In this document: positions 47,901-63,736 of the stretch, in pieces
Layout of the letters: the number at the start of each line of letters is the position of its first letter
How positions within the stretch are numbered: the stretch's first letter is position 1
Assembly: GCA_963732005.1 (NCBI GenBank)
Contig: CAVSXT010000005.1
Location: 237,788 to 301,787 of the forward strand
Reading direction: 5' to 3'
DNA: 64,000 bases
From: an uncultured Acidobacteriota bacterium
GTDB lineage: Bacteria; Acidobacteriota; Thermoanaerobaculia; Multivoradales; UBA5704
Translations under genes and position numbers: made by a program
The notes under the pieces: generated by a model
Database searches by the model: none
What the model saw: the letters and a program-made list of their open reading frames with translations, nothing else
Told to the model about the DNA's origin: nothing

Positions 47901-49568
47901 TTGATCGTCGTCGACTCGGGAGACCAGCAGCTCGGCGTCGCCGGCCAGGCGCTGCCGCGGCCGCTGGCGGCGGCCGTGGTCGATGCCGGCGGGAACCGCC
48001 TGGCCGAGGTGGCGGCCAGCTTCCGGGTGGTCAAGGGCGCCGGCCAGCTCGCCAACGGCCAGCAGACCATGGCGCTCACCACCGACAGCGACGGCCGGCT
48101 CATCGCGGCGCTCACCACCGATCCGGCCGAGGGCGTCGCCAACAACGTGGTCGAGGCCACGATCGATGGTCTCGCCGGCGGGCTGGTGGCGAGCTTCACC
48201 GCCTCCACCTGGGCGGCGGGGGACCCCAGCCTGACGGCGGTGAGCGGGGTGGTGCTCGACAACAGCAATCTGCCGCTCGCCGGGGTCACCATCCGCATCC
48301 GGGACACCGCCCTGACCGCGGTCACCGATGCCCAGGGGCTGTTCCAGATCGCGCCGGCGCCGGTCGGCACGCTCAAGCTGATCGTCGACGGCAGCACCGC
48401 GCAGCGCTCCGGCGCCTGGCCGGACCTGGAATTCGACCTCACCACGGTGCCGGGACGCAACAACACGGTGCGCATGCCGATCTACCTGCTGCCGCTCGAC
48501 CTGGCGCACGGCATCCAGGTGGACGAGACGCACGGCGGCACGCTGACCCTGCCGCAGCTCCCCGGCTTCGCGCTGCAGATCCAGCCGGGCTCGGTCACCT
48601 TCCCCGGCGGCGGCCGCAGCGGCGTGGTGAGCGTGACGGTGGTGCACAGCGACAAGGTGCCGATGGTCCCCAACTTCGGCCAGCAGCCGCGGCTGATCGT
48701 GACCATCCAGCCGGCCGGCGCCCTGTTCAATCCGCCCGCCCAGCTCACCATGCCGAACGTCGAGGGTCTGGCCCCCGGCCAGGTGACCGAGCTCTACTCC
48801 TTCGACCACGACCTCGGGCACTTCGTGAGCATCGGCCCCGCCACGGTGAGCGACGACGGCAGCGTCGTCACCTCCAACGTCGGCGTCGGCATCCTCAAGG
48901 CCGGCTGGCACTGCTGCGGGTTTCCGCAGGGCAGCGGGACTCCCAACAGCTGCCCTGAGTGCACGGACTGTACAGGCGACCAGTGCAAGGCAAGGGATCT
49001 TTGCACAGCCTGCAAGAGCCCTCCGGGTCCGGGCTATTCCTGTAATGGTCCAAAAGACTGCGCACCTCCTAACGCGATCCTCCCCAACATCGCCGACAGA
49101 GTCAGGCTACAGGTCGACAAGCAGAGCACTCAAGTCTTCCAATGTCCGGACGATCCCAATGGTCCGCCTGACAAAGCCCAACGCTGCGGCGCGTCCATGT
49201 TCTTTAACTATTCAAGTGTGGATCCTCATTGTGGTTCCATCGATCTCGCAGGAAATAGCTGGTCGGAAACCGCTACCAGTGACTATAATTGCAGCGGAGC
49301 GCTCCAGCACAAGGCGATCGTGATTGGTTCCGGTTGCAGCGTCGATCCGGGGAACGCCCTGACAGGCTGCCATGATGAGTTCTCCGTATGTCTCGACCCT
49401 AGTTCGCTTCCTCTCGGCGATTGTATTGAGACAGCGCAGCAGCAAATTCTCTGGCAGCCTTATGGCAGTGATAACAAGTATCCAGGCGAGACCGTTACCG
49501 TGGTGTTTACCTTCCATAGGACACAGTCCGGATGCACCGGCAGCATATCGGTCACCCGGATGCCATAG
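44940..49568 (+). CDS. Giant secreted protein: 2x DNRLRE-like, multiple Ig-like, carboxypeptidase-regulatory-like domains, Cys-rich C-terminal tip
   Basis: RBS GAGGAGG; signal peptide; two 'ADS/TY..P....G....L.V......LVxFD' units; repeated 'P.V.I.SP' Ig units; 'GWHCCG' at 48903-48920 followed by a Cys-rich, lower-GC tail. Confidence 0.82.
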   Translation: MSKAVGRLEGGLRPALRRQSGRMAVALAVGLLAAVAGSARLCGQTVTLQAIADSTIKQESPNQSFGAQATLVVKEGGSRVLVRFDPAAIGAAVGGGSLASAQLRLYIGTNGGNWGTTGRTVDVYRADASWTEMGATWNCAVDANPANSVADCATPWNGGTIEDDATDTVVVTNTSSGWIQFDVTADVQAFLAGTANDGWLLEKTDEGQGGRVDLVSREGSAGQGPQLVLISQSAAVDTVPPAVAIVAPAQPVLVNMPSPPIAVAYQDGGSGVDTSTLRVVLDGQDLTAGCTVGAQSASCTSPALAAGAHTVTANVQDHAGNAATASRSFQLFLGPAVSTLTLPAVADTYITGAAPDKEHGRAAILRVAKSGPRRALVQFDPAALAAALAGSQLLSAQLELAIAANGNNWGTSGRTVGVYPMTVAWSEAAATWDCPADTNLDNHQPDCAARWNGGAFAASPTATALLTRDLGGTLDFDVTADVAAFLAGTASDGWLLKKTDEAASGRADFVSREAGSGQAAQLVVVFQVPAPDTTPPTLTITSPADGSYSRTPSIQVTGTIGGTVAAVTVGGQPASLAQGGFTASVTLVQGANVLVAVATDAAGNQASATALVTLDTTPPTLTLTTPSPGQLTNQPQVQVAGSATDDSGIATLTVGGQPVTLAASGKFSTLVPVGEGVSSIEVDAVDLAGNQQTVVVSVNRFSIPTVAIVSPPDLSYVNATTVTVSGTVGAAVTVSVNGVAAAVSGNSFTAAGVPLAEGGNSLTATATDAQGHVGLATINVVRDLTPPHVAIYTPAAGATVGDSAVAVSGLVNDIVAGTVNAGNVQVTVNGVPAVVANRAFLAPAVRLQPGTNVLTAVAVDASGNQAQTSVTVQQARPAAPSVAVVLGGGQSAVIGTVLAQPLVAVVQDAVGQPVPGKTVLFRVRGGNGTLDGGRRDLGVTSDANGQALVHFTLGTRAGAGNQVVEASAVGSGPPAVFLASALPGAPALIVVDSGDQQLGVAGQALPRPLAAAVVDAGGNRLAEVAASFRVVKGAGQLANGQQTMALTTDSDGRLIAALTTDPAEGVANNVVEATIDGLAGGLVASFTASTWAAGDPSLTAVSGVVLDNSNLPLAGVTIRIRDTALTAVTDAQGLFQIAPAPVGTLKLIVDGSTAQRSGAWPDLEFDLTTVPGRNNTVRMPIYLLPLDLAHGIQVDETHGGTLTLPQLPGFALQIQPGSVTFPGGGRSGVVSVTVVHSDKVPMVPNFGQQPRLIVTIQPAGALFNPPAQLTMPNVEGLAPGQVTELYSFDHDLGHFVSIGPATVSDDGSVVTSNVGVGILKAGWHCCGFPQGSGTPNSCPECTDCTGDQCKARDLCTACKSPPGPGYSCNGPKDCAPPNAILPNIADRVRLQVDKQSTQVFQCPDDPNGPPDKAQRCGASMFFNYSSVDPHCGSIDLAGNSWSETATSDYNCSGALQHKAIVIGSGCSVDPGNALTGCHDEFSVCLDPSSLPLGDCIETAQQQILWQPYGSDNKYPGETVTVVFTFHRTQSGCTGSISVTRMP

Positions 49569-49572
49569 CGCT

Positions 49573-51504
49573 ATGCGTTCCAGCCCTCGGTTTGCCGGCG
49601 TCTGCGCGATGAGGCTTCTGGCCTTCTATCCGCTGATTGCAACCCAGCTCTTCTTTCATCCGGCGGTCGCGACCGTATGCCCCTGGACGGAGGTGGGTGG
49701 AGAGAGGCTGCTCGACGGCCGCGTAGGGTCCTTTTCCTCCACGGACATGACGGTCGAAGGGGTCTGGGACGCGCTGGTTAGCCAGCACGCCGTTCCACTG
49801 TCGTTCATCCAGGCCGCACCCGAAGCCAAAGTCAGCCTCGACCTCCGCGGGGCCACGGTCCGCCAGGTGCTCGACGCCGTGGTGGCTCGCGCTCCGGCAT
49901 ATCGCTATGAGGTCATCGGTGACCGACTCGTGTTGTTTCCGCGTGACCTGAAATGGGAGATGCGCCTCGAGGGCTTCACCTCCGGGCCGGCACGCCGCCT
50001 GGACGTGGCGGTCGACCTCGTCCGCGAGCTGAAGCGAAGAGACCCCGACTTCGCGGGGTTGATCGCGCCCGCGTATAGAGTCATTGGCAGCGAGGGAGCA
50101 ATCTACCGTGACGTCGTGAAGGTGGTCTCACCGGGTACGATCCTCGAGCTGCTGGTGCAGCTCCTGGGCCAGCGTCCATCTGCCGTGTTCTCCCTGGGCC
50201 GAGATCGCTGGGGGCATCAATTCCTTGACCTTAGCGGGGTGCAGCTGCTGCAGTCCTTCGAGTTGACGGCGCCATCGACCACCTTGCGGGATAGGGCCGA
50301 CACAGTGCAGCTCAAGGTGCTGGGCAGATTGAGGGGCCTGGGCGAGCGACTGGACTTCACTGCCGGTGGCTGTGGCACCACCTATTCATCCAGCGACGAA
50401 GGGGTGATCACTGTCAGCGCCGACGGGTTGGTTAGTGTACGTGGCACCGGTAGGGCAGTGGTCATCGCAAGAAACGACGACAGCTTGTCCTCTCTGCCCT
50501 TGACCGTCATCCTTACCGCTGAGCAGGTACGTCCGCGACCCGGGGCGCCGCCGCGGGCCACCGGAGGCGGCAAGCCCCTGGTGGCGGCAGCTCTACAGCT
50601 TGCCCAGGGGGCAGCCGCAGCCTGCTCATGGCCTGAGGCGACTGGCGAGCGGTTGCTCGCACGCAAGGTCGGCGATCTCTCGGTGACGCTGGTCGAGGTG
50701 GAGAAGGCGGTCGCCGAGATCGCCAAGCAGAGTGACCTGCCGATGTCGTTCATCCAGGCCGATTCACACCGCAAGATCAGCCTGACTCTGCGCGACGCGA
50801 GCGTGCGGCAGGCACTGGACGAGATCCTCCGGCAAGCGCCCGAATATCGCTACGGCCTGGTGGCCGAGCGCCTGGTGCTGTATCCGCACGATCCGATCTG
50901 GGAAACGCGGCTGGACAACCTGAGTCTGGGTCCCGGACCGCGCTTTGCGGTGACGGGTGAGCTGGCGAAGGAGCTATCCCGGCGTTTGCCCGCCCTCGCC
51001 TACCTTTCAGGCCCCTGGATGCTCGGCAACGGCAACAGCTACACCTATAGAGACATCGTCAGCGTGACCGGACCCGGCTCGATCCTTGATTTATTCGTCC
51101 AGCTCCTCGGCGGCCGCCCCTCTACCTTCTTCATCCTGGACAAGCCGAGCGAGGTGCGCGGCAGCCTGTCGGTGAGCTCGATGGACCAGCTACGTTCCCT
51201 GAAGGTGACGGCGCCGACCACGACATTTCATCGCTCTGGCGAAGCTGCGCAGCTAAAAATGACTGGGCTGTTGAGAAGTGGCGGAGAGAAGGATCTCTCC
51301 GCGGGTGCGTGCGGGACGGTCTACTCGGTCAACGACGATCGAGTCGTCGGTGTCACCGCCGACGGTCTGGTGAGCGCTGGTGTCAACGGCACCGCGGCGG
51401 TCACGGTGTCAAACGAGCATTCGTCCGCGTCGATCGTTTTCGAGGTCCGTCGATCCGACTCTCCGGCGCCGGCCGCGCCTTTGGCGCCGGCCGGCAAGGA
51501 GTAG
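49573..51504 (+). CDS. Secreted protein with two tandem [STN-like + Ig-like (Big_2)] units
   Basis: Duplicated 'PLSFIQA....KVSLDLRGATVRQVLD.VV..AP.YRY.VI.DRLVLFP' and 'CGTxYSxxDxxVITVxADGLVS'. Start at 49573 or 49609. Confidence 0.68.
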   Translation: MRSSPRFAGVCAMRLLAFYPLIATQLFFHPAVATVCPWTEVGGERLLDGRVGSFSSTDMTVEGVWDALVSQHAVPLSFIQAAPEAKVSLDLRGATVRQVLDAVVARAPAYRYEVIGDRLVLFPRDLKWEMRLEGFTSGPARRLDVAVDLVRELKRRDPDFAGLIAPAYRVIGSEGAIYRDVVKVVSPGTILELLVQLLGQRPSAVFSLGRDRWGHQFLDLSGVQLLQSFELTAPSTTLRDRADTVQLKVLGRLRGLGERLDFTAGGCGTTYSSSDEGVITVSADGLVSVRGTGRAVVIARNDDSLSSLPLTVILTAEQVRPRPGAPPRATGGGKPLVAAALQLAQGAAAACSWPEATGERLLARKVGDLSVTLVEVEKAVAEIAKQSDLPMSFIQADSHRKISLTLRDASVRQALDEILRQAPEYRYGLVAERLVLYPHDPIWETRLDNLSLGPGPRFAVTGELAKELSRRLPALAYLSGPWMLGNGNSYTYRDIVSVTGPGSILDLFVQLLGGRPSTFFILDKPSEVRGSLSVSSMDQLRSLKVTAPTTTFHRSGEAAQLKMTGLLRSGGEKDLSAGACGTVYSVNDDRVVGVTADGLVSAGVNGTAAVTVSNEHSSASIVFEVRRSDSPAPAAPLAPAGKE

Positions 51505-51518
51505 CGGTGGGGAGGCCG

Positions 51519-52628
51519 ATGCGACTGTCCAAGAGCGGTGCGCTGGTGACTGTCATATCGGGGGCGCGCTTCGACGGGTCGTGTCAGGAGGCGATAGCGC
51601 CCTTTCGATTGCCTCTCCTCGCTGGTGCCTGGAGGCTGCTTCTCGGGATCGGCGTGCTGGCGCTCAATGCGTTCGCTCCGCGACCAGCAAGTGGACAGGT
51701 GATCGATTTGTCGGTTGTGGATGTTCCGGTCTCCGCAGGGGCCAAGGAGGCTTGCGAATGGACTGGCCCCTCCGTGGAATGGGTGCTGGCGAGGCGTCTG
51801 CCTGCTGGCGAGATATCGGGTTCGTTGGAATCTGAGGTCATTCCGTACTTGAATCGGTACGGTCCGGTATCCTTCATAACGAAGGGCACCGGCGACAAGC
51901 AGGTTCGGCTACAGATTGGCCAGGGCGCCACGATGCGGGAGGTCCTCGGGCAGATGGGGGGCGAGGCTTCCGACTACCGCTTTGGAGCGATCGATGGCAG
52001 ACTCGTCCTCTATCCGAAAGGAGAGATGTACGAGACTGTGGTCGAGCTCGGGCCGCTGGCCAGGATGAAGCGATCGGAGGCTTTTTTCTCCCTGATCAGG
52101 AGCCTAAAGGATTGGAGCAAAGCATTTCAGACCCTCGAGCTACCGACCTTCCGCGGGTCCCTGGTCGTAATGGAGAAAGAGGGATCGAAGCCGGGAGACT
52201 TTAACGCGGGTTCGGAAAAGTTTCCCTACCAAGACATGATCGAGGTCGGTGGCAAGCGATCAGTCCTCGAGCATCTGGTGTCCTTGATCCAGAAGCGCCC
52301 ATCGCAGACGTTTCGAATGCTCGACACAGGCGATGGCCATCTCGTTCTTGACCTCGATTCGACGCCTTTGGTGGAGAATCTCAAAGTGCACCTGCCGTCA
52401 GCGGTCAGGGTCGGCGATAGCTTCGACGCATTGGTAACCGGGACGCTCGACGACGGTACGGTCGTTTCGCTCGCGGGGCCGGAGTGCTATGTCAGCTATG
52501 ACGTCGATAGGGCTGAAGTTCTTGAGATCGACGGTCTGGGGAGGACGGTCGCGAGAAAAAAGGGCGTGGGGACCATTGTTGTCACGTATGAGCACCAGTT
52601 TGCCCGCGCTCAGGTTGAGGTCCAATGA
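51519..52628 (+). CDS. Secreted protein with one [STN-like + Ig-like] unit (paralog of the previous gene)
   Basis: 'PVSFIT......VRLQIGQGATMREVL.QM......YRFGAIDGRLVLYP'; 'CYVSYDVDRAEVLEIDGLG'. Confidence 0.62.
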   Translation: MRLSKSGALVTVISGARFDGSCQEAIAPFRLPLLAGAWRLLLGIGVLALNAFAPRPASGQVIDLSVVDVPVSAGAKEACEWTGPSVEWVLARRLPAGEISGSLESEVIPYLNRYGPVSFITKGTGDKQVRLQIGQGATMREVLGQMGGEASDYRFGAIDGRLVLYPKGEMYETVVELGPLARMKRSEAFFSLIRSLKDWSKAFQTLELPTFRGSLVVMEKEGSKPGDFNAGSEKFPYQDMIEVGGKRSVLEHLVSLIQKRPSQTFRMLDTGDGHLVLDLDSTPLVENLKVHLPSAVRVGDSFDALVTGTLDDGTVVSLAGPECYVSYDVDRAEVLEIDGLGRTVARKKGVGTIVVTYEHQFARAQVEVQ

Positions 52629-55600
52629 CGATCGGAGAACGGATGCGCCGGCAAGGGAGTTTGACCTCAGCGGCAGGCGCGCCTTTTCTGCTGCTCTTCC
52701 TCGCTGCCTCGGCTGCATGGGGCCAGCTCGACCAGACCTGCACGGTCAGCGCGCTCAACCGCACGGCGCCGGTGGACGCCAACGGCGTCTGGGTGCTGAC
52801 CAACGTGCCGATCGGCTCGGGGCAGATCCGGGTGCGCGCCACCTGCGTCGCCAACGGCGTCACCCGCTCCGGGCAGTCGAGCCTGATCACCATCCCCGCC
52901 AACGGGGTGATCACCGTCGACGACATCTCGTTCGCTCAATTGCAGCCGATCCCGACGCTGCTCACGCTCGCGGCGCCGGTGGCGTCGCTCGGGAGCGCGG
53001 GCCAGCAGGTGCAGCTCGCCGCGACGGCGACCTATCCGGACGCCTCGCAGGCCGACGTCACGCCGGGCGCCTCCGGCACCGGCTACCGGTCGAGCAATCC
53101 GGCGATCGCCAGCGTCGATGCCAACGGCGTGGTGACCGCGCTGCTGAGCGGCGTGGTGATGATCAGCGCGCTCAACGAGGGGGTGCTCGGGGTGCTGCGC
53201 CTGCAGGTGGTGCTCGCCGGCAGCACGGCCGGGGACGGCATCCCCGACGACTGGAAGGTCGCGCACGGCCTCGATCCGAACGACCCCTACGTGGCGATGG
53301 AGGACCCGGACAACGACGGCCTCACCAACCTCGAGGAGTACCAGAACGGCACCGATCCCAACAACCCGGACACCGACGGCGACGGCCTCTCCGACGGCGA
53401 CGAGGTGCACGTCTACCACACCAACCCGCTGCTCTGGGACACCGATGGCGACGGCCTCGCGGATGGGGTCGAGGTGCGCACCGGCAGCGATCCGCTCGAC
53501 AGCCACAGCTTCAACCTGGCGGCGGCGCTCGCCGCGATCACGGTCTCGCCGGCCGCGTTCACCCTGGCCTTCAACACGGTCGGCGGCGAGGCGTCGCGGC
53601 AGCTGTCGGCGCAGGGCAGCGTCATCGACGGCCGGACCATCGACCTGTTCAATCCGCTCTACCAGGCCCAGGTCCAGGTCGCATCGAGCAACCTGGCGGT
53701 GGCGAGCTTCGGAGCGCAGCCGGGCCGGGTGTATGCCGGGCAGAGCGGCACCGCCACGATCGCGGTGACGGTGAGCCACGGCGGCCCTGCCGCGACGTCG
53801 AGCGTCACGGTGACGACGTTCTCGCCGGTCGCGCTGGCCTTCCTGCCGCTTCCCGGCTTTCAGAACGCGGTCGAGGTGGCCGGCAACTTCGCGTTCCTGG
53901 CCTCCGGCGCCTACGGGCTGGCGGTCGTGGACGTGACCAATCTGCAGGCCCCGGAGCTGGTCGCGCAGCTGGCCACCCTGGGCAGCGCCAACGACGTGCG
54001 GGTCGCGGGCACCATGGCCTACGTCGCCGAGACCATCGGGCTGCAGCTGGTGGACGTGAGCGAGCCGGCGCATCCCGTGCAGCTCGGCAGCGTGAGCTTC
54101 CCGGGTGGCGACCAGGGGCGCCTGGCGGTCGGTGGCAGCCTGGTGTATCTCGCCGACCTGAATTTCGGCCTGCACGTGGTGGACGTGACGAATCCCCTGC
54201 AGCCGGTCGAGGTCGGCAGGCTGGCGCTCACGGGCACCCCGCGCGCGGTGAGCCTGGGCGGCACCGGGCAGGGCGGCTTCGGCCTGAGCGGATCGTATGC
54301 GGTGGTCGCCTGCGGCGACGGGGGCGTGGCGGTCGTCGACGTGAGCGTGCCGGCGGCGCCGGTCCTCGTGGGCATCACCGCTCCCGACCAACCGCGCGCC
54401 GGTAGCGTCACGGTGCGCGGGCACTACGCCTACGTGGCCGCCGGGGAGGCCGGGATCTACGGCGGCTTGCACGTCGTCGAGCTGGCGGACCCGACCAACC
54501 CCGTGGACCTGGGGACCGGCGAGGACGATCTGGGAGTGGTCCGCGTGGCGCTGGCGGACGGGTTCGCGCTGGGCGCGCAGTTCTTCATCGCCGGCCAGGT
54601 GGCGATCTTCGGGGTCGGCAGCCTGCCGCCGGCCTACACCGCGGTGCTCGACCTGAGCACGGTGCCCGGCGCCGGCGGGGTGGTCGCGCCGCGGGGCAGC
54701 GACATCGCCGTGCGCAACGGCGCGGTGTTCATCGCCGGCAACGGCCAGCAGCTGGGCGAGTTCATCGACTACGCCACGGCCCAGGGCGGTCTCTACACCG
54801 GGCTCTTCGAGTTGCCGGTGGACGGCGATACCAATCCCCCGGCGGTGAGCATCACCTCGCCGGCGGCGGGCGCGCCGCTGCTGGAGCGGCTGCCGGTGAC
54901 GGTGGCGGTGACCGCGCAGGACGAGGTGTCGGTGGCCTCGGTCGGCATCCTGGTCAACGGCGCGATGGTCGAAACGCTCTACCAGCCGCCCTACCAGGTC
55001 GCCCTGCAACCGCCAGCCGGGCAGGCGGCGATGACCCTCGGCGCCGTGGCGACGAACCTCGGCGGCGTGCAGGCGACCACGCAGGAGACGTTCGTCGTGC
55101 AGCCCTATCCGCTGCCGGTGGCGAGGCTGCTGGCGCCGGTTCCCGGCCAGGTTTTGATCGACGGCATGCCGCTCATCATCGCGGTCGCGGCGAGCGACGC
55201 CGTGGCGGTGACGCGGGTCGAGGTCTATGTGAACGGCCAGCTGGCCGGCACGCTTTCGGCGCCGCCGTACCTCTTCCAGGTGACGGTCCCGCGCGGGTCG
55301 GCAGCGCTCGCGGTGACGGCGCTCGCCTACGACGCGCTCGGGGCGGGGGCGCCGTCGGCGCCGGTGACCGTCACGGTGCAGCCGGACGTGCCGCCGACGG
55401 TGGCGATCTTCTCGCCGCTCGACGGCGCGCAGGTGACCGAGGGCAGCGTGGTGCCGATCGTGGCGGGAGCCAGCGACGCGACTGGTATCTCGAGCGTGCT
55501 GTTCGATCTCTTCGGCATGGAATTCACGGGTGCTGCCACCGCGCCGTTCGTGGCTTCGATCGTCGCGCCGCCGGCCGGCCAGACCGCGGTGCTGTCGGTT

Positions 55601-58619: not shown

Positions 58620-61600
58620 GTGAAGACCGTTAGGATTGCAATCTGCCAGCTCGAATCGCATCCGGCGCTGTATTTCGGCGCAGCTGCCCTCCTCGAGGAA
58701 CCCTTCGTTCCGGCACACAACAAACCATCGCTCGCGAAACTCGGTGCCAGAGGAATCGATGTAATATCGCTTCAGCAAGGCTGCCTAGAACACTATCTTG
58801 GGTGGAATCAAGTTCGCATCGCCAGCGTGTTGACATTCCTAGAGACCGTCGCGCCCCTTCCTGACCTTGTCCTACTTCCAGAAGGCTCAATTCCGATCGA
58901 GCTTCTACCAAGCGTTGGCGAGTGGTCGTCGAAAACTGGAGCAACCGTCCTGGCTGGTACGCATACTCCTCGGAGAACGCCACACGCCCAAGAATGCTAC
59001 AGGGCGATTGGCTTAGACGCAAAAGGCATGAGGCAGTTATTCAAGTATCAGTCATCAAATGTCCTACCATTAATTAGAACGGGGCACGCAGTCATTATCC
59101 CCAAGCGCCATGCTTCTCCGTTCGAGACTTCCACCAGCTCCACGGTTTTGCCGGCCACACCCTCACTGAGGCCATTTTCTTCTGGTGCACCTCAGCATAT
59201 TTTCGAACTATTGCCAATGATATGCTCGGAAGCACTACAGCTTTCCACGGTCGCTAAGCCCTATGACGTAGTGGGCCTTTTGGCCTATGATTCAAGGCCC
59301 ACCCAGTTCGGCGCATTCATTTCAACCCAAGTGCGAAACAAGAAGGCAGTGGCGTTCTGCAACGATGGCGCCTTTGGTGGAAGCTCAATCGCGACAGCTC
59401 TCGACAACAGGATGTCGAGTTGGCTTCACGAGACTTTGCCCAACGGCCTTCCGGCAGGCGATGCTATCCTCGTGGCAGACATCGATCTCGACGTGACCGC
59501 GGTAGAGGTGGGTACGGCGGTGCCGGGGGTATCAATGCGGCTTGTGTTGCTTGCCTCTATCGTTGGTGAGCACCATCCCGCAAGTGAAGCAGCTCGGCAA
59601 ATGGCTGAGGTGCGGGAACTCGGCCAGTCAACAGCGCGCGCTGCACAGCTAGAGGAGCTGTTGCGCAGGCCTTTGGAAACGTTGCAACGTGTCCGTCTCG
59701 ATCAACTTCTGACTGTGGAGGCACGTGGACTTCCGTCGGAAGAGTTGTGGCGGGAACTAGGCCGAGATTGTATCCTTCCTGGGCTCTCTTCGCTTCGCGA
59801 ACTCGAAGCCCAACTGAGCTCTAGATGTTCACGCTACCTTACTCCGCTCCTCGGATCCTCCTTGACGCAAAAGGAGGAGGTGGCGATTCCTTTTATGCAA
59901 TATCTCGCCGAGTGCAATCGCCGGATGGGAGCACAGGCGCCCGATGATACCAAGGCAAAGGCTGAAGACTATGCCATCGCAATAGTCGACCGTGAGCGCG
60001 AAACCTCTTCCGTTCATCTCTTTCTAGACGAACCGACTCAGCTAGTTCTGGAAGTTACCGGTCTTAACGGGATTGGGAAAACCTCGACTCTTAAGAAAGC
60101 CCTTACGCAATCTGGAATATCAGCCACACTCAGGATCATTCTTACTGATACCTCCTCAGTGGATTATATCCTCTACTCTGTGCTTCAGTATGGTGGAGGC
60201 CAGCCACGACCACCCTACAGCGATCCTGCCCAAGTCGCCAGTGGTCCAGCCTTGCGGGCCGCGTTGAGATCAATTCGTGTCTTGATACTTGAAGGCGCAC
60301 ACTATCTCTTGGATCGAGATGCCTGGCGAGATGCGCGTTTCCCGTCTGTAATCGCAGCGCTGTTGGATTCTGCTGATGCGACGCGAACGAAAATCATTAT
60401 AGAGTCGCGCCATGAGCTGCCCCTGGCGCTAGGGCATCCTGCTTCAAGGGCAAAGCTGCATGTTAGGGGCCTCAGCAAGGAGGCGAATAGATTTGGGGTT
60501 GCACTCTTCGATGCGCAGTTACGCCGTGTCAACCTTCTCCCAAGCGTTGTCGGCGATCGCGAGAAGAGCACTATCGTCGACAAACTTGGTGGTCATCCTG
60601 TTGCCATCGCGCTGGCGGCTGACGTGTCATACGAGGAAGGTGTCGATGCTTTGCTCGCTTCCCTAAGGGATCGTCGCGGTTTCTTTTTGCATTTTCTCGA
60701 AGAACTGGTTCGGGGATTGAAGCTCACGGATGATCAGGCGACTGTCATGCGACTTCTTTGCGTAGCGCGGTCAGGCGTTCCGCGTGCCGTCATACTGGAA
60801 TCAGTACCGTTTGCAGCTGGCCCCAGCCTTCGAGAGCTCATTGCCATGGGTGCTGTAGAGGTCGGCCCAAACGGTTGGGTTGAGGTTGCCTCCGTACTGC
60901 GCGACTACTTTGACTCCTCTGAAGTTCCGCCCGACGTGCTGAAATCATTTCATGCGGCTGCAGCGCAGGCTCTCGCTCGCATGGTGCAAGAAAGCGATGG
61001 CGGTGCTGTGGGCCTAGCTGTCGAGGCAGAGTATCACGCGGCTCTAGGGGGGATTGAGTCTCCGGTATCGACAGGCCTGGTAGATGGTGCTGTTGCAACG
61101 GCGCAGGAGTTTTACGCGCAGCAACGATACGACGAGGCGGCGGCGATCCTCGCGCCACTTGCGAGAGCGAAGCAGTCGCTGGATATCCTTCGGCTTGCCG
61201 CGCAGGTGGAGGCGAGGCGTAATAACTTCGATGCGGCTCTTTCCTTTGCACGAGAGGTCTTTAAGCGGAATCCGAGGGACACTTCACTCCTGGCGGAGCT
61301 TTCGAAGATCACGCTCACTCAGTTCCAAGATGAAATTACAGAGCAACTTGTCAGCATTGCTCGGTCTTCTGCTGTTGAGGATGTGAGCATTATGATTGTG
61401 GAGGGTCGTCTGCATCTTCGGAGAGGGAACTTCCCTGCTGCCGAGACGGTGCTGAGGAAGGCTGCGCAGCTGACAGAGAAGAATCCTTGGCCATTTTTCT
61501 ATCTTGGTAGGACGCTAATACGCAGTGGCAAGTTGGATGAGGCGATAGATGTACTTCATGCCGGCGAGGAGTTCTATTTTAAGGTCGAGGCAAGAGGGAG

Positions 61601-62126
61601 AGCGGCTCTTGACGCCATTAGGACACAGTTGGGCATTGCCTACCTGCTGGACGATAAGCTAGAGCTAGCGGCGACGATCCTTGAGTCGGTGCTTCAGCAG
61701 GACAAACCCAATCCAGAAGGTATTCGGGCATTGGCTGCGCTTGCGATTAAGCGCGATGGCGTTAAGGAAGCTCATCAGGTGCTTGAGCGACTGCAGGAAG
61801 CTGGGATTAAGAGTCGAGCCGATGAAGCTCAGTTCCGGCTGCTGTACGGTCTTTTTTATTTGGGTATAGACGACCTTAACAAAGCCAGCGCTGAATTTGG
61901 CAAGGCACACAACGCAGATAGGACGAACGTATTTGTGATGATGAAGTGGGCGAGGACTCTGTTTGATCTCGCAGTCAGTCGCTTCTCGGAATCCGATGAA
62001 ACTTACAAGGTTTATGTGACTGACTGCGCCAGGCTGGTTAGAAAGATTCTGGAATTTGATCCAGATAATCACGAAGGAGTCCGCCTCATGGAGAGTCTCA
62101 GGAACCGTTTTGGAGTGGATATCTGA
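58620..62126 (+). CDS. Nitrilase-fold (CN hydrolase) + STAND-like NTPase + TPR fusion protein
   Basis: N-terminal 'VRIAICQ', 'LLPEGS', 'IPKRHASPFE', 'MICSEAL' (E-K-C triad); Walker A 'GLNGIGKT' near 60060; 'LGGHPVAIALAA' (GxP); C-terminal TPRs; low GC. Confidence 0.72.
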   Translation: MKTVRIAICQLESHPALYFGAAALLEEPFVPAHNKPSLAKLGARGIDVISLQQGCLEHYLGWNQVRIASVLTFLETVAPLPDLVLLPEGSIPIELLPSVGEWSSKTGATVLAGTHTPRRTPHAQECYRAIGLDAKGMRQLFKYQSSNVLPLIRTGHAVIIPKRHASPFETSTSSTVLPATPSLRPFSSGAPQHIFELLPMICSEALQLSTVAKPYDVVGLLAYDSRPTQFGAFISTQVRNKKAVAFCNDGAFGGSSIATALDNRMSSWLHETLPNGLPAGDAILVADIDLDVTAVEVGTAVPGVSMRLVLLASIVGEHHPASEAARQMAEVRELGQSTARAAQLEELLRRPLETLQRVRLDQLLTVEARGLPSEELWRELGRDCILPGLSSLRELEAQLSSRCSRYLTPLLGSSLTQKEEVAIPFMQYLAECNRRMGAQAPDDTKAKAEDYAIAIVDRERETSSVHLFLDEPTQLVLEVTGLNGIGKTSTLKKALTQSGISATLRIILTDTSSVDYILYSVLQYGGGQPRPPYSDPAQVASGPALRAALRSIRVLILEGAHYLLDRDAWRDARFPSVIAALLDSADATRTKIIIESRHELPLALGHPASRAKLHVRGLSKEANRFGVALFDAQLRRVNLLPSVVGDREKSTIVDKLGGHPVAIALAADVSYEEGVDALLASLRDRRGFFLHFLEELVRGLKLTDDQATVMRLLCVARSGVPRAVILESVPFAAGPSLRELIAMGAVEVGPNGWVEVASVLRDYFDSSEVPPDVLKSFHAAAAQALARMVQESDGGAVGLAVEAEYHAALGGIESPVSTGLVDGAVATAQEFYAQQRYDEAAAILAPLARAKQSLDILRLAAQVEARRNNFDAALSFAREVFKRNPRDTSLLAELSKITLTQFQDEITEQLVSIARSSAVEDVSIMIVEGRLHLRRGNFPAAETVLRKAAQLTEKNPWPFFYLGRTLIRSGKLDEAIDVLHAGEEFYFKVEARGRAALDAIRTQLGIAYLLDDKLELAATILESVLQQDKPNPEGIRALAALAIKRDGVKEAHQVLERLQEAGIKSRADEAQFRLLYGLFYLGIDDLNKASAEFGKAHNADRTNVFVMMKWARTLFDLAVSRFSESDETYKVYVTDCARLVRKILEFDPDNHEGVRLMESLRNRFGVDI

Positions 62127-62248: not shown

Positions 62249-63736
62249 TTACAGGCGATTTGTGCCTCTTTTCATACCGAGATGGGCTCTAAACATTGGG
62301 TGAATATCAAATCGCCTGCTATTGGAGACACTGAGACTGAAGGCTTGATGAGGTCCCAGGTAACCACTCTTTGCTGCATGGCCTCGTCCGAGACTTCCAA
62401 AGGGCTCGGCCCGCAAAAAGCCAACTCGCCAGAGAAGGTCGATCAGCCTCCCGGGATCAATGGCAAGACACCATGACTCAGCACCTGGAGCGCTTAGCTC
62501 TCGTTCACAAATTCGAAGACAGTGGTATTCCAAAGCATCTCTTGAGAACGAAATCGGCATGCCGCGAAAGGTCTCAAAGATATCGTCAAGGCCAGGAAAC
62601 TCAAACCTATATTCAGCAGCTGTATCCTTTAGGCGGGCCTCAGAATGAAGAGGCTCAACGGAGCTTATGAGGTCGTAATTAAAAGGAGGCAGTAAAGACC
62701 TCTTCAATGCGAGATCGCGAACTAGTTCGCAAAACTGTATTAGCTCGCGAGGGCGATAGAGAGTGCGGTCCACAAGATATTTAAACGACTTGCCCTGCCG
62801 ATCCGTTAGAGTCTCAGAGAAGACCCTGTTCCAGAGGTGTTCCGCCTGTAGAAAGTTTAACTCCGGGACAGAAACGCGCAATCTCTTCGCTATCATCTCC
62901 AAGAGGCTTTGTTCATCCCATACGAGGAACTCAATGGTGTCGCGATATTTTTGAGCGTCGTCGAATAGAGCTGGGATGCTTCGGTAAAGCTCGAGGCGAA
63001 GCGATAGAATTACCCGAACGCCGTTTTGTTCATTGTTTATTAGCATGGAAGCATTGAAAAGACCTGCTACAAAGGCCCGCGCATCCTCCGAGTTGTCCCA
63101 GCCGCGATCCAACTCGTCAACAAGAACGATTACAGGCTTGGTCCGCGCCAGTATAGCTAGGTGACTAACCGGAGTTGTAAGCTCCTCAAGTCGATATAAC
63201 CGGGCGAGCTCCCGTGCCTTGACACCAGCCTCGAACTTTCCTAGTTTGATGCCCTCAAGCCGTTTAATAAATGATATCAGCATGCCAATTGGATTCACGT
63301 CCATGTTGGCGTGATTGTCTCGTAAGTAGTTATACAGCTTGCCTGCTGCGCCGTGTTTCAGGCGAGAGCCAGTTTTGGTAACTGCCTTCATGGCAGACAG
63401 ATATATGATGTATCTCCAGGCGGCCGCGTATGCAGCCTGCTTTGCCCATGCTCCATCCTCTTCCCTCCGCAGGGTGGTTTCAAGGATGCCATACGAGTAG
63501 TCATCAGGTGCGAGTTCCAGTACTGTCGCGCTGCCGCGGAGTCTTGCAGCCAGCGCCTTTAGAATCGCAGTCTTGCCCGCCCCTCGATTTCCAAGGACAA
63601 TTGTCTTGTCGCCATACCTGAGGCGGCGAAAGGATTCAGATTCGAAGAAGTATCTATCGAGGTGCTCCTCTCTTTCGGCAGCAGGTGCGCCAAACGAAAG
63701 ATCGGCTGGATCGATTCGGGTAGTGTGGGTATTCAT
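62249..63736 (-). CDS. P-loop ATPase (Sll1717/FunZ-like)
   Basis: 'FGAPAAERE...L..YF', 'GNRGAGKT', 'VLVDELDRGW', 'RPRELIQF'; low GC. Confidence 0.75.
   Translation of the reverse strand: MNTHTTRIDPADLSFGAPAAEREEHLDRYFFESESFRRLRYGDKTIVLGNRGAGKTAILKALAARLRGSATVLELAPDDYSYGILETTLRREEDGAWAKQAAYAAAWRYIIYLSAMKAVTKTGSRLKHGAAGKLYNYLRDNHANMDVNPIGMLISFIKRLEGIKLGKFEAGVKARELARLYRLEELTTPVSHLAILARTKPVIVLVDELDRGWDNSEDARAFVAGLFNASMLINNEQNGVRVILSLRLELYRSIPALFDDAQKYRDTIEFLVWDEQSLLEMIAKRLRVSVPELNFLQAEHLWNRVFSETLTDRQGKSFKYLVDRTLYRPRELIQFCELVRDLALKRSLLPPFNYDLISSVEPLHSEARLKDTAAEYRFEFPGLDDIFETFRGMPISFSRDALEYHCLRICERELSAPGAESWCLAIDPGRLIDLLWRVGFLRAEPFGSLGRGHAAKSGYLGPHQAFSLSVSNSRRFDIHPMFRAHLGMKRGTNRL

Follow-up and report, generated by a model that had tools for sequence, protein, structure and literature searches.

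A nitrilase-STAND-TPR protein with a DRT-type head, probably a variant of the bacterial NLR-like immune design

What would a carbon-nitrogen hydrolase do at the tip of a protein that is otherwise built like an immune receptor? The question is raised by a gene in a stretch of 64,000 nucleotides from an uncultured Acidobacteriota bacterium (contig CAVSXT010000005.1; hereafter the window), the product of which runs from a nitrilase-like head through a STAND nucleotide-binding module to an array of tetratricopeptide repeats (TPRs). A preliminary description, made by reading the letters, had parsed the protein in this way and had proposed a phage-sensing STAND whose nitrilase destroys an essential metabolite. 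The parsing proves correct when checked by AlphaFold2 (AF2) modelling and Foldseek, and the interpretation as a whole is partly supported. The answer we favour, as rather likely though far from settled, is an immune sensor of Avs or bacterial NLR-like design that stands alone, is horizontally mobile and assembles an active nitrilase on oligomerisation.

The family was defined by a first homologue search, which yielded 24 full-length homologues with 31–67% identity (alignment A1), alignable end to end with the 1168-residue open reading frame (ORF). The N-terminus of the ORF matches the Met-starts of the homologues residue for residue in this 24-member alignment, and the start call is therefore sound; an AGAGG sequence lies 8–12 nucleotides 5' of the GTG start.

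Is the head truly a nitrilase? As far as modelling can tell, the N-terminal domain is a genuine but divergent nitrilase fold, in line with what the preliminary description had seen there. The AF2 model of residues 1–335, built on the family alignment, has a pLDDT (predicted local distance difference test) of 82.7 and a pTM (predicted template modelling score) of 0.85. Searched against the PDB with Foldseek, it gave 34 matches at E ≤ 1e-3, all 34 of them nitrilase-superfamily enzymes (best E 1.7e-8, template modelling score (TM) 0.45–0.58, probability 1.00, identity about 10–13%), beyond which the matches drop to E 1e-2. These enzymes include the S. aureus C-N hydrolase 3p8k, AmiF formamidases, the PH0642 amidase, N-carbamoylputrescine amidohydrolase, the glutaminase domain of NAD synthetase, and Nit4. 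The Pfam family CN_hydrolase (PF00795) did not match the window protein even at E ≤ 1, and it does not rank among the 25 families with the most frequent matches in the 24-member set. The head is recognised solely by the DRT-nitrilase models of PADLOC (DRT, defence-associated reverse transcriptase) and by its fold.

The apparent Glu-Lys-Cys triad noticed earlier is intact and extends to a tetrad: E88, K162, E169 and C202 are invariant across the 24-member alignment. The positions of these residues in the AF2 model are those expected of a nitrilase: E88 sits at the end of strand 83–86, and C202 between strand 196–201 and helix 203–206, which is the nucleophile-elbow position; Glu169, taken as the second glutamate because of its spacing from Lys162, flanks a low-confidence loop (residues 170–174). 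Among 102 long relatives (defined below), E88 is retained in 98, K162 in 99, E169 in 98 and C202 in 100, both in proteins with the nucleotide-binding oligomerisation domain (NOD) and TPR module and in those without it (GAF-type). Because these representatives are at most 50% identical to each other, retention of the tetrad in about 100 of the 102 indicates that catalysis is under selection. Six further residues of the head, Q10, H14, E27, H115, N248 and R264, are invariant as well.

By sequence comparison, the nitrilases of defence reverse transcriptases are the closest detectable relatives of the head. The preliminary description had mentioned DRT1 as a precedent for nitrilases in defence, and the link turns out to be stronger than claimed. 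The window protein alone gives a weak match to the PADLOC model RTasNitrilase (E 4e-4, residues 66–257); across the family, this model matches 21 of the 24 members (best E 9.6e-11), RT_UG5-nitrilase matches 18 and Drt1a two, the RT-nitrilase profiles being matched over their nitrilase part only. When the N-domain profile was searched against PDB sequences, DRT1 (9yfd) was the sole credible match (E 0.012); the single N-domain sequence matched nothing in the PDB. A septin, at E 0.16 in the profile search, was dismissed as evidently spurious. In the DRT1 alignment, Cys202 falls on residue 1116, the catalytic cysteine of DRT1 (PMC13275509), and the PE motif falls on the SE of DRT1. The nitrilase domain is the effector of DRT1, whose activity and toxicity need assembly of a tetramer in which every contact is made by that domain; nitrilases are not common in antiphage defence, according to the same authors (PMC13275509).

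The remainder of the protein has the build of a STAND switch with a TPR sensor. The full-length AF2 model (pLDDT 83.4) shows linker helices at residues 322–436, a hinge at 440–455 with pLDDT below 50, a P-loop alpha/beta domain at 459–614, helical and winged-helix parts to about residue 810, and TPR-type helices to residue 1164. Its best Foldseek match is the STAND-TPR crystal structure 6mfv_A (E 2e-12, 753 columns), and further matches include a wheat resistosome and human SAMD9. A full-length profile search of PDB sequences returned TPR proteins only and was uninformative for the NOD. Pfam nSTAND6 matches 15 of the 24 members (best E 1.3e-8); on the window protein itself, Pfam gives weak P-loop matches to AAA_22, nSTAND6 and ATPase_2 at residues 456–597 and no match to NACHT. 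The C-terminal TPRs of the preliminary description are significant Pfam matches over residues 830–1110 (TPR_19, 5.7e-13; TPR_14, 2.6e-10). Conservation within the family is highest in the TPR array (mean pairwise identity 48%) and lowest in the linker (29%), which stands behind the nitrilase head even in relatives without a NOD-TPR module.

The nucleotide-binding motifs named in the preliminary description are all present, with a nuance that concerns the second of them. The Walker A residues G481, G486 and K487 are each 99% conserved among 70 relatives, and so, at 94–99%, is the GHP (residues 658–660) of GGHPVAIALAA at residues 657–667. This GHP motif (LGGHPVAIALAA) is the counterpart of the GxP motif of NB-ARC. 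The Walker B glutamate E558, in VLILE, is retained in only 45 of the 70 (64%), the remainder having Q, R, S or T. Such a difference between the Walker A and GHP motifs on one side and Walker B on the other means that ATP binding looks essential, while hydrolysis may not be. The assignment of VLILE as Walker B and of KIIIESR as the sensor-1 strand is the one favoured by the model; KIIIE (residues 591–595) was considered as Walker B and is disfavoured by its spacing from Walker A and by the strand order of the model.

To see how widely the head is used, 1.84 billion cluster representatives were searched exhaustively with a hidden Markov model (HMM) of the N-domain. Matches at E ≤ 1e-3 numbered 769 proteins, of which 367 reached E ≤ 1e-10 and 151 reached E ≤ 1e-30. 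From the matches listed, 102 representatives of at least 900 residues and at most 50% identity to each other were taken, and domain HMMs made from A1 were applied to them. The nitrilase-linker-NOD-TPR build is found in 70, mostly of 1150–1190 residues. The other 32, of 1040–1830 residues, carry the same head, often with the linker, on another C-terminal part, and GAF domains were found in three of the representatives of this class that were scanned. Species-level genomes with the nitrilase-STAND-TPR family belong to Acidobacteriota (Vicinamibacterales, Thermoanaerobaculia and one unclassified metagenome-assembled genome (MAG)) and to one Boseongicola MAG, an alphaproteobacterium; the distribution of the family is patchy, and its spread over Acidobacteriota classes and beyond is a sign of transfer. 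A Foldseek search of viral structures (BFVD) gave nothing significant.

The class without NOD-TPR comprises P0094, P0101, P0120, P0029 and about 28 others. The gene for P0029 (1655 residues; L017:10001-14968, in a 7.8-Mb genome) lies between a transposase-ArdC-MazG block and a Gabija-like pair, that is, an AAA_15 protein with OLD-TOPRIM followed by a UvrD helicase. Judging by these sequences, a DRT-type head on a different, GAF-containing C-terminal module near a Gabija-like pair would fit a portable effector.

The gene is horizontally acquired and probably mobile. Its GC content is 54.5%, against 71.4% in positions 1–48000 of the window and about 71% for the genome, and the low-GC block that had been noticed before begins at about 58450, just past an upstream PAP2-like gene, and continues to the window end. 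The same holds elsewhere. In a survey of 16 loci, the window included, the gene lies 3–19 GC points under its own flanks at all 15 homologue loci as well as in the window, which suggests that the family remains foreign in base composition at each site of insertion. The identical protein is also encoded on one other contig, of 5.5 kb. No tRNA gene was found near the low-GC island, and a scan of the island for promoters and terminators did no better than on shuffled sequence.

No neighbour gene is conserved across the 16 loci, so the gene is a one-gene unit. Restriction-modification (RM) or restriction genes adjoin it in five of them, and mobile-element or toxin-antitoxin contexts are found in most others (Table 1). 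Such neighbourhoods, tallied over the 16 loci, are the pattern expected of a mobile defence gene.

Two of these loci contain further genes that deserve mention. A Mu-like prophage (L006:13692-22255), in which terminase, Mu portal and Gp36 genes were recognised, lies directly beside the full-length homologue that has diverged furthest (31% identity). This prophage also encodes a 419-residue ATPase matching PADLOC mad3 (E 2.4e-11). The closest homologue (67% identity) has, 2 kb downstream, a bacterial ubiquitination-like module of Multi_ubiq, ThiF (E1-like) and BubE (L009:8045-9858), and a Replic_Relax gene overlaps its start.

Taken as an immune sensor, the protein would work as follows. The C-terminal TPR array would bind a trigger, most likely a conserved phage protein; binding would free the ATP-bound STAND module to oligomerise, and oligomerisation would bring the N-terminal nitrilase domains together. 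The assembled nitrilase would then hydrolyse a C-N bond, other than a peptide bond, in some component essential to the cell, and the infected cell would be arrested or killed, an abortive-infection outcome. Enzymes of the nitrilase superfamily must form dimers or larger assemblies to be active. We infer the tie between oligomerisation and activity from this property together with the need of DRT1 for a tetramer. As to what is hydrolysed, the NAD-related amide suggested in the preliminary description would be one candidate among several.

Several observations weigh against this reading. First, the acidic residue of Walker B is poorly conserved, and ATP hydrolysis may accordingly be dispensable or weak. 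Second, the high conservation of the TPRs is as compatible with a housekeeping ligand as with recognition of a conserved target, and the GAF-coupled relatives hint at small-molecule regulation. Third, the evidence from the defence-island or mobile-element-like contexts of homologues is a tally of 16 loci as opposed to a statistical enrichment over a background, and several loci (L001, L014, L015) have housekeeping or uninformative neighbours. Fourth, no relative was found by tblastn among PLSDB plasmids and INPHARED phages or in a scan of IMG/VR. Finally, the Avs models of PADLOC v2.0 match none of the 24 members at E ≤ 0.01.

Among the alternatives, the one that survives best keeps the immune role and changes the target: the nitrilase would act on a macromolecule, by deamidating Asn, Gln or an N-terminal amide of a host or phage protein, or by acyl transfer. 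Such chemistries are known in the Nta1 and Lnt branches of the nitrilase superfamily. The head is far from the metabolite-acting enzymes, given its low identity and TM to them and its invisibility to Pfam CN_hydrolase, and its six extra invariant residues could give it an unusual pocket. In the classification of Pace and Brenner (cited in PMC13275509), the superfamily does include amidases of protein N-termini as well as acyltransferases. None of this discriminates between a macromolecule and a small metabolite, however, and the DRT1 authors favour small amide- or amine-bearing metabolites, without a substrate in hand (PMC13275509). We regard a macromolecular target as unlikely, while taking it more seriously than the two explanations that follow.

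A somewhat less probable alternative is that the protein is a signal-gated amidase with no immune role, whose STAND-TPR part senses an endogenous protein or metabolite and whose C-N hydrolase tunes metabolism or the response to stress. Regulation, as opposed to immunity, is the role of many bacterial STAND-TPR proteins (MalT, AfsR and GutR types), and MalT-type and other regulatory STANDs act on transcription. The occurrence of the same head with GAF domains, which are typical small-molecule sensors, would suit such a role, as would the strong conservation of the TPR array, the loci among housekeeping genes and the want of an Avs match. Against it, the 16 loci have no conserved metabolic or regulatory neighbour and instead recurrently show restriction systems, toxin-antitoxin pairs, insertion sequence (IS) elements, plasmid genes and, once, a prophage; the GC content is anomalous at every locus and the distribution patchy; and it is to defence nitrilases that the enzyme is most closely related. 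That the nitrilase serves chiefly as a structural module for oligomerisation or as an adaptor, as its core does in the DRT1 filament, with the lethal output elsewhere (ATP consumption or a recruited protein), we consider very improbable: the DRT1 tetramer is indeed held together through this domain (PMC13275509) and no second recognisable effector exists in the family, but a pure scaffold would hardly be expected to keep four catalytic residues in about 98% of 102 divergent relatives, GAF-type ones included, no conserved partner gene exists, and the poorly conserved Walker B residue argues against ATP burning as the output.

The immune-sensor reading can be carried one step further, and here we are tentative, holding the extension to be possible but less probable than its failure. 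The DRT-type nitrilase might be a defence-dedicated clade of the superfamily, missed by Pfam CN_hydrolase, that serves as a portable immune warhead on at least three unrelated controllers, all hitting the same essential amide-bearing target. One kind of controller would be the protein-priming reverse transcriptases of DRT1/UG5, a second the STAND-TPR switches of the present family, which comprise at least 70 clusters at 50% identity, and a third the GAF-array proteins, with 30 clusters or more. Should this be true, it would be an effector chemistry new to prokaryotic immunity, and the present form, being a single protein switched on by a trigger, would give the easiest access to the substrate.

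The last point matters because the substrate and killing mechanism of the DRT1-type nitrilase effector are explicitly an open question in the 2026 structure paper. A STAND-TPR protein that carries such a head offers a simpler handle on this chemistry, with one gene and no nucleic-acid product, and it should be switchable by co-expression of a trigger or by activating NOD mutations, as in other NLR-like proteins. If the protein is protective, carbon-nitrogen hydrolysis joins the outputs of bacterial NLR-like receptors, and effector heads would be seen to be exchanged among controllers based on reverse transcriptases, STANDs and GAF domains.

How does the protein compare with systems already described? 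First, it resembles the Avs/AVAST proteins (Avs2-Avs5, Avs7) in module order, size, single-gene organisation, TPR sensor and mobile, defence-rich location. Trigger-induced oligomerisation that assembles the effector is known for Avs (PMC13581612) and, by analogy, would be expected here. It differs from them in its effector, a nitrilase as opposed to a nuclease, SIR2, TIR or protease, and in its NTPase (nucleoside triphosphatase), which is nearest Pfam nSTAND6. PADLOC recognises the head, through RTasNitrilase, but none of its Avs models matches the protein. In a 2026 survey of defence STAND families, the main text nowhere uses the word 'nitrilase'.

Second, DRT1 (UG1) and other class 3 UG/Abi reverse transcriptase-nitrilase systems (UG5 and RT-associated nitrilases; 9yfd) share the nitrilase head, with catalytic cysteine and glutamate aligned. 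The window protein has none of the reverse transcriptase, alpha-repeat domain and protein-primed DNA of DRT1, and its nitrilase is N-terminal and under a STAND-TPR switch, whereas that of DRT1 is C-terminal. Since no match to a reverse transcriptase domain was obtained with Pfam, NCBIfam or PADLOC, the protein is not a DRT.

Third, CN-hydrolase is listed among the domains fused to NACHT modules in the domain-architecture figure of the bNACHT paper (Kibby et al., bioRxiv 10.1101/2022.07.19.500537), so that a fusion of such a hydrolase to an NTPase of the STAND class is already on record. The catalogued fusion is, as far as the text shows, not among the proteins tested there, and the window protein differs from it in lacking a NACHT match, having the weak nSTAND6 and AAA_22 matches instead. 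The effector thus has more of a precedent than the preliminary description implied. Fourth, the NOD-TPR part of the full-length model finds its best structural counterpart in the PH0952-type archaeal STAND-TPR protein (6mfv), which is 14% identical and has no nitrilase head.

A literature search for nitrilases with STAND, Avs or NLR returned no description of this family, the related items being the bNACHT entry and the C-N hydrolase toxins in ParA-based systems described in a 2026 preprint. As a general idea, therefore, a STAND with a C-N hydrolase output is not new. What we did not find described or put to the test in the literature searched is a fairly large family that combines an nSTAND6-like NOD and a TPR array with a DRT-type head. 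The gene is probably a variant of a known immune design.

Table 1. Features of the nitrilase-STAND-TPR gene in the window, and genes found beside its homologues in the context survey (aa, amino-acid residues)
Feature	Window position	Strand	Basis or description
Whole ORF	58620..62126	+	1168 aa, GTG start, uninterrupted, no internal stop; stop codon 62124-62126
Nitrilase-superfamily (C-N hydrolase) domain, DRT-type, aa 1-316	58620..59567	+	AF2 fold, Foldseek, PADLOC RTasNitrilase, DRT1 profile match
Glu88 codon, catalytic Glu, LPEGS motif	58881..58883	+	invariant in 24; aligns with DRT1 FSE motif
Lys162 codon, catalytic Lys	59103..59105	+	invariant in 24; after model strand 156-161
Glu169 codon, second Glu of nitrilase tetrad, Lys+7	59124..59126	+	invariant in 24
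Cys202 codon, nucleophile, MICSEAL	59223..59225	+	invariant in 24; aligns with DRT1 C1116
Helical linker, aa 317-455, with disordered hinge aa 440-455 at its end	59568..59984	+	full-length AF2 model
STAND nucleotide-binding domain, aa 456-615	59985..60464	+	motifs, Pfam nSTAND6
Walker A GLNGIGKT, aa 481-488	60060-60083	+	fits GxxxxGK[ST]
Walker B (favoured) RVLILEG; VLILE aa 554-558	60276-60296	+	motif, model strand order
Sensor-1 strand (favoured) KIIIESRH	60390-60413	+	motif, model strand order
Helical and winged-helix domains of NOD, aa 616-820; GxP-type motif LGGHPVAIALAA at 60585-60620	60465..61079	+	GHP conservation, Foldseek 6mfv_A
TPR sensor-like array, aa 821-1168, about 18 helices	61080..62123	+	Pfam TPRs, all-helical AF2 model
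P0004 locus			complete Type I RM system directly downstream, toxin-antitoxin genes
L011			Type I RM methylase and specificity genes, GmrSD
L010			MmeI-type RM enzyme, serine recombinase
L013			MmeI-type RM enzyme
L012 (67%-identical homologue, Acidobacteriota MAG)			Mrr-type nuclease, large serine recombinase, Replic_Relax gene
L006			edge of Mu-like prophage with terminase
L007, L008			plasmid-like contigs; ParA/RepA, IS elements, PIN toxin-antitoxin pairs
L005			IS-rich DNA, several transposases
L003			DUF4062 protein, PemK
L009			Multi_ubiq-ThiF-BubE operon
L001, L014, L015, L016			housekeeping or unannotated neighbours

Two other parts of the window may be recorded. A second stretch of lower GC (60–65%) at positions 48500–52700, downstream of a repetitive ORF of 1566 residues, holds the ORFs 49372-51504 and 51309-52628, neither of which gave a match in Pfam or PADLOC. 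In the same low-GC block as the nitrilase-STAND-TPR gene, and convergent with it, positions 62249-63736 (minus strand) encode a 495-residue AAA_16 P-loop ATPase with weak PADLOC matches to PDC-M28C (3e-6) and PtuA (about 5e-4). It was considered as a partner gene and rejected, as it adjoins no homologue; it may be a separate defence candidate, with partner genes beyond the window end.

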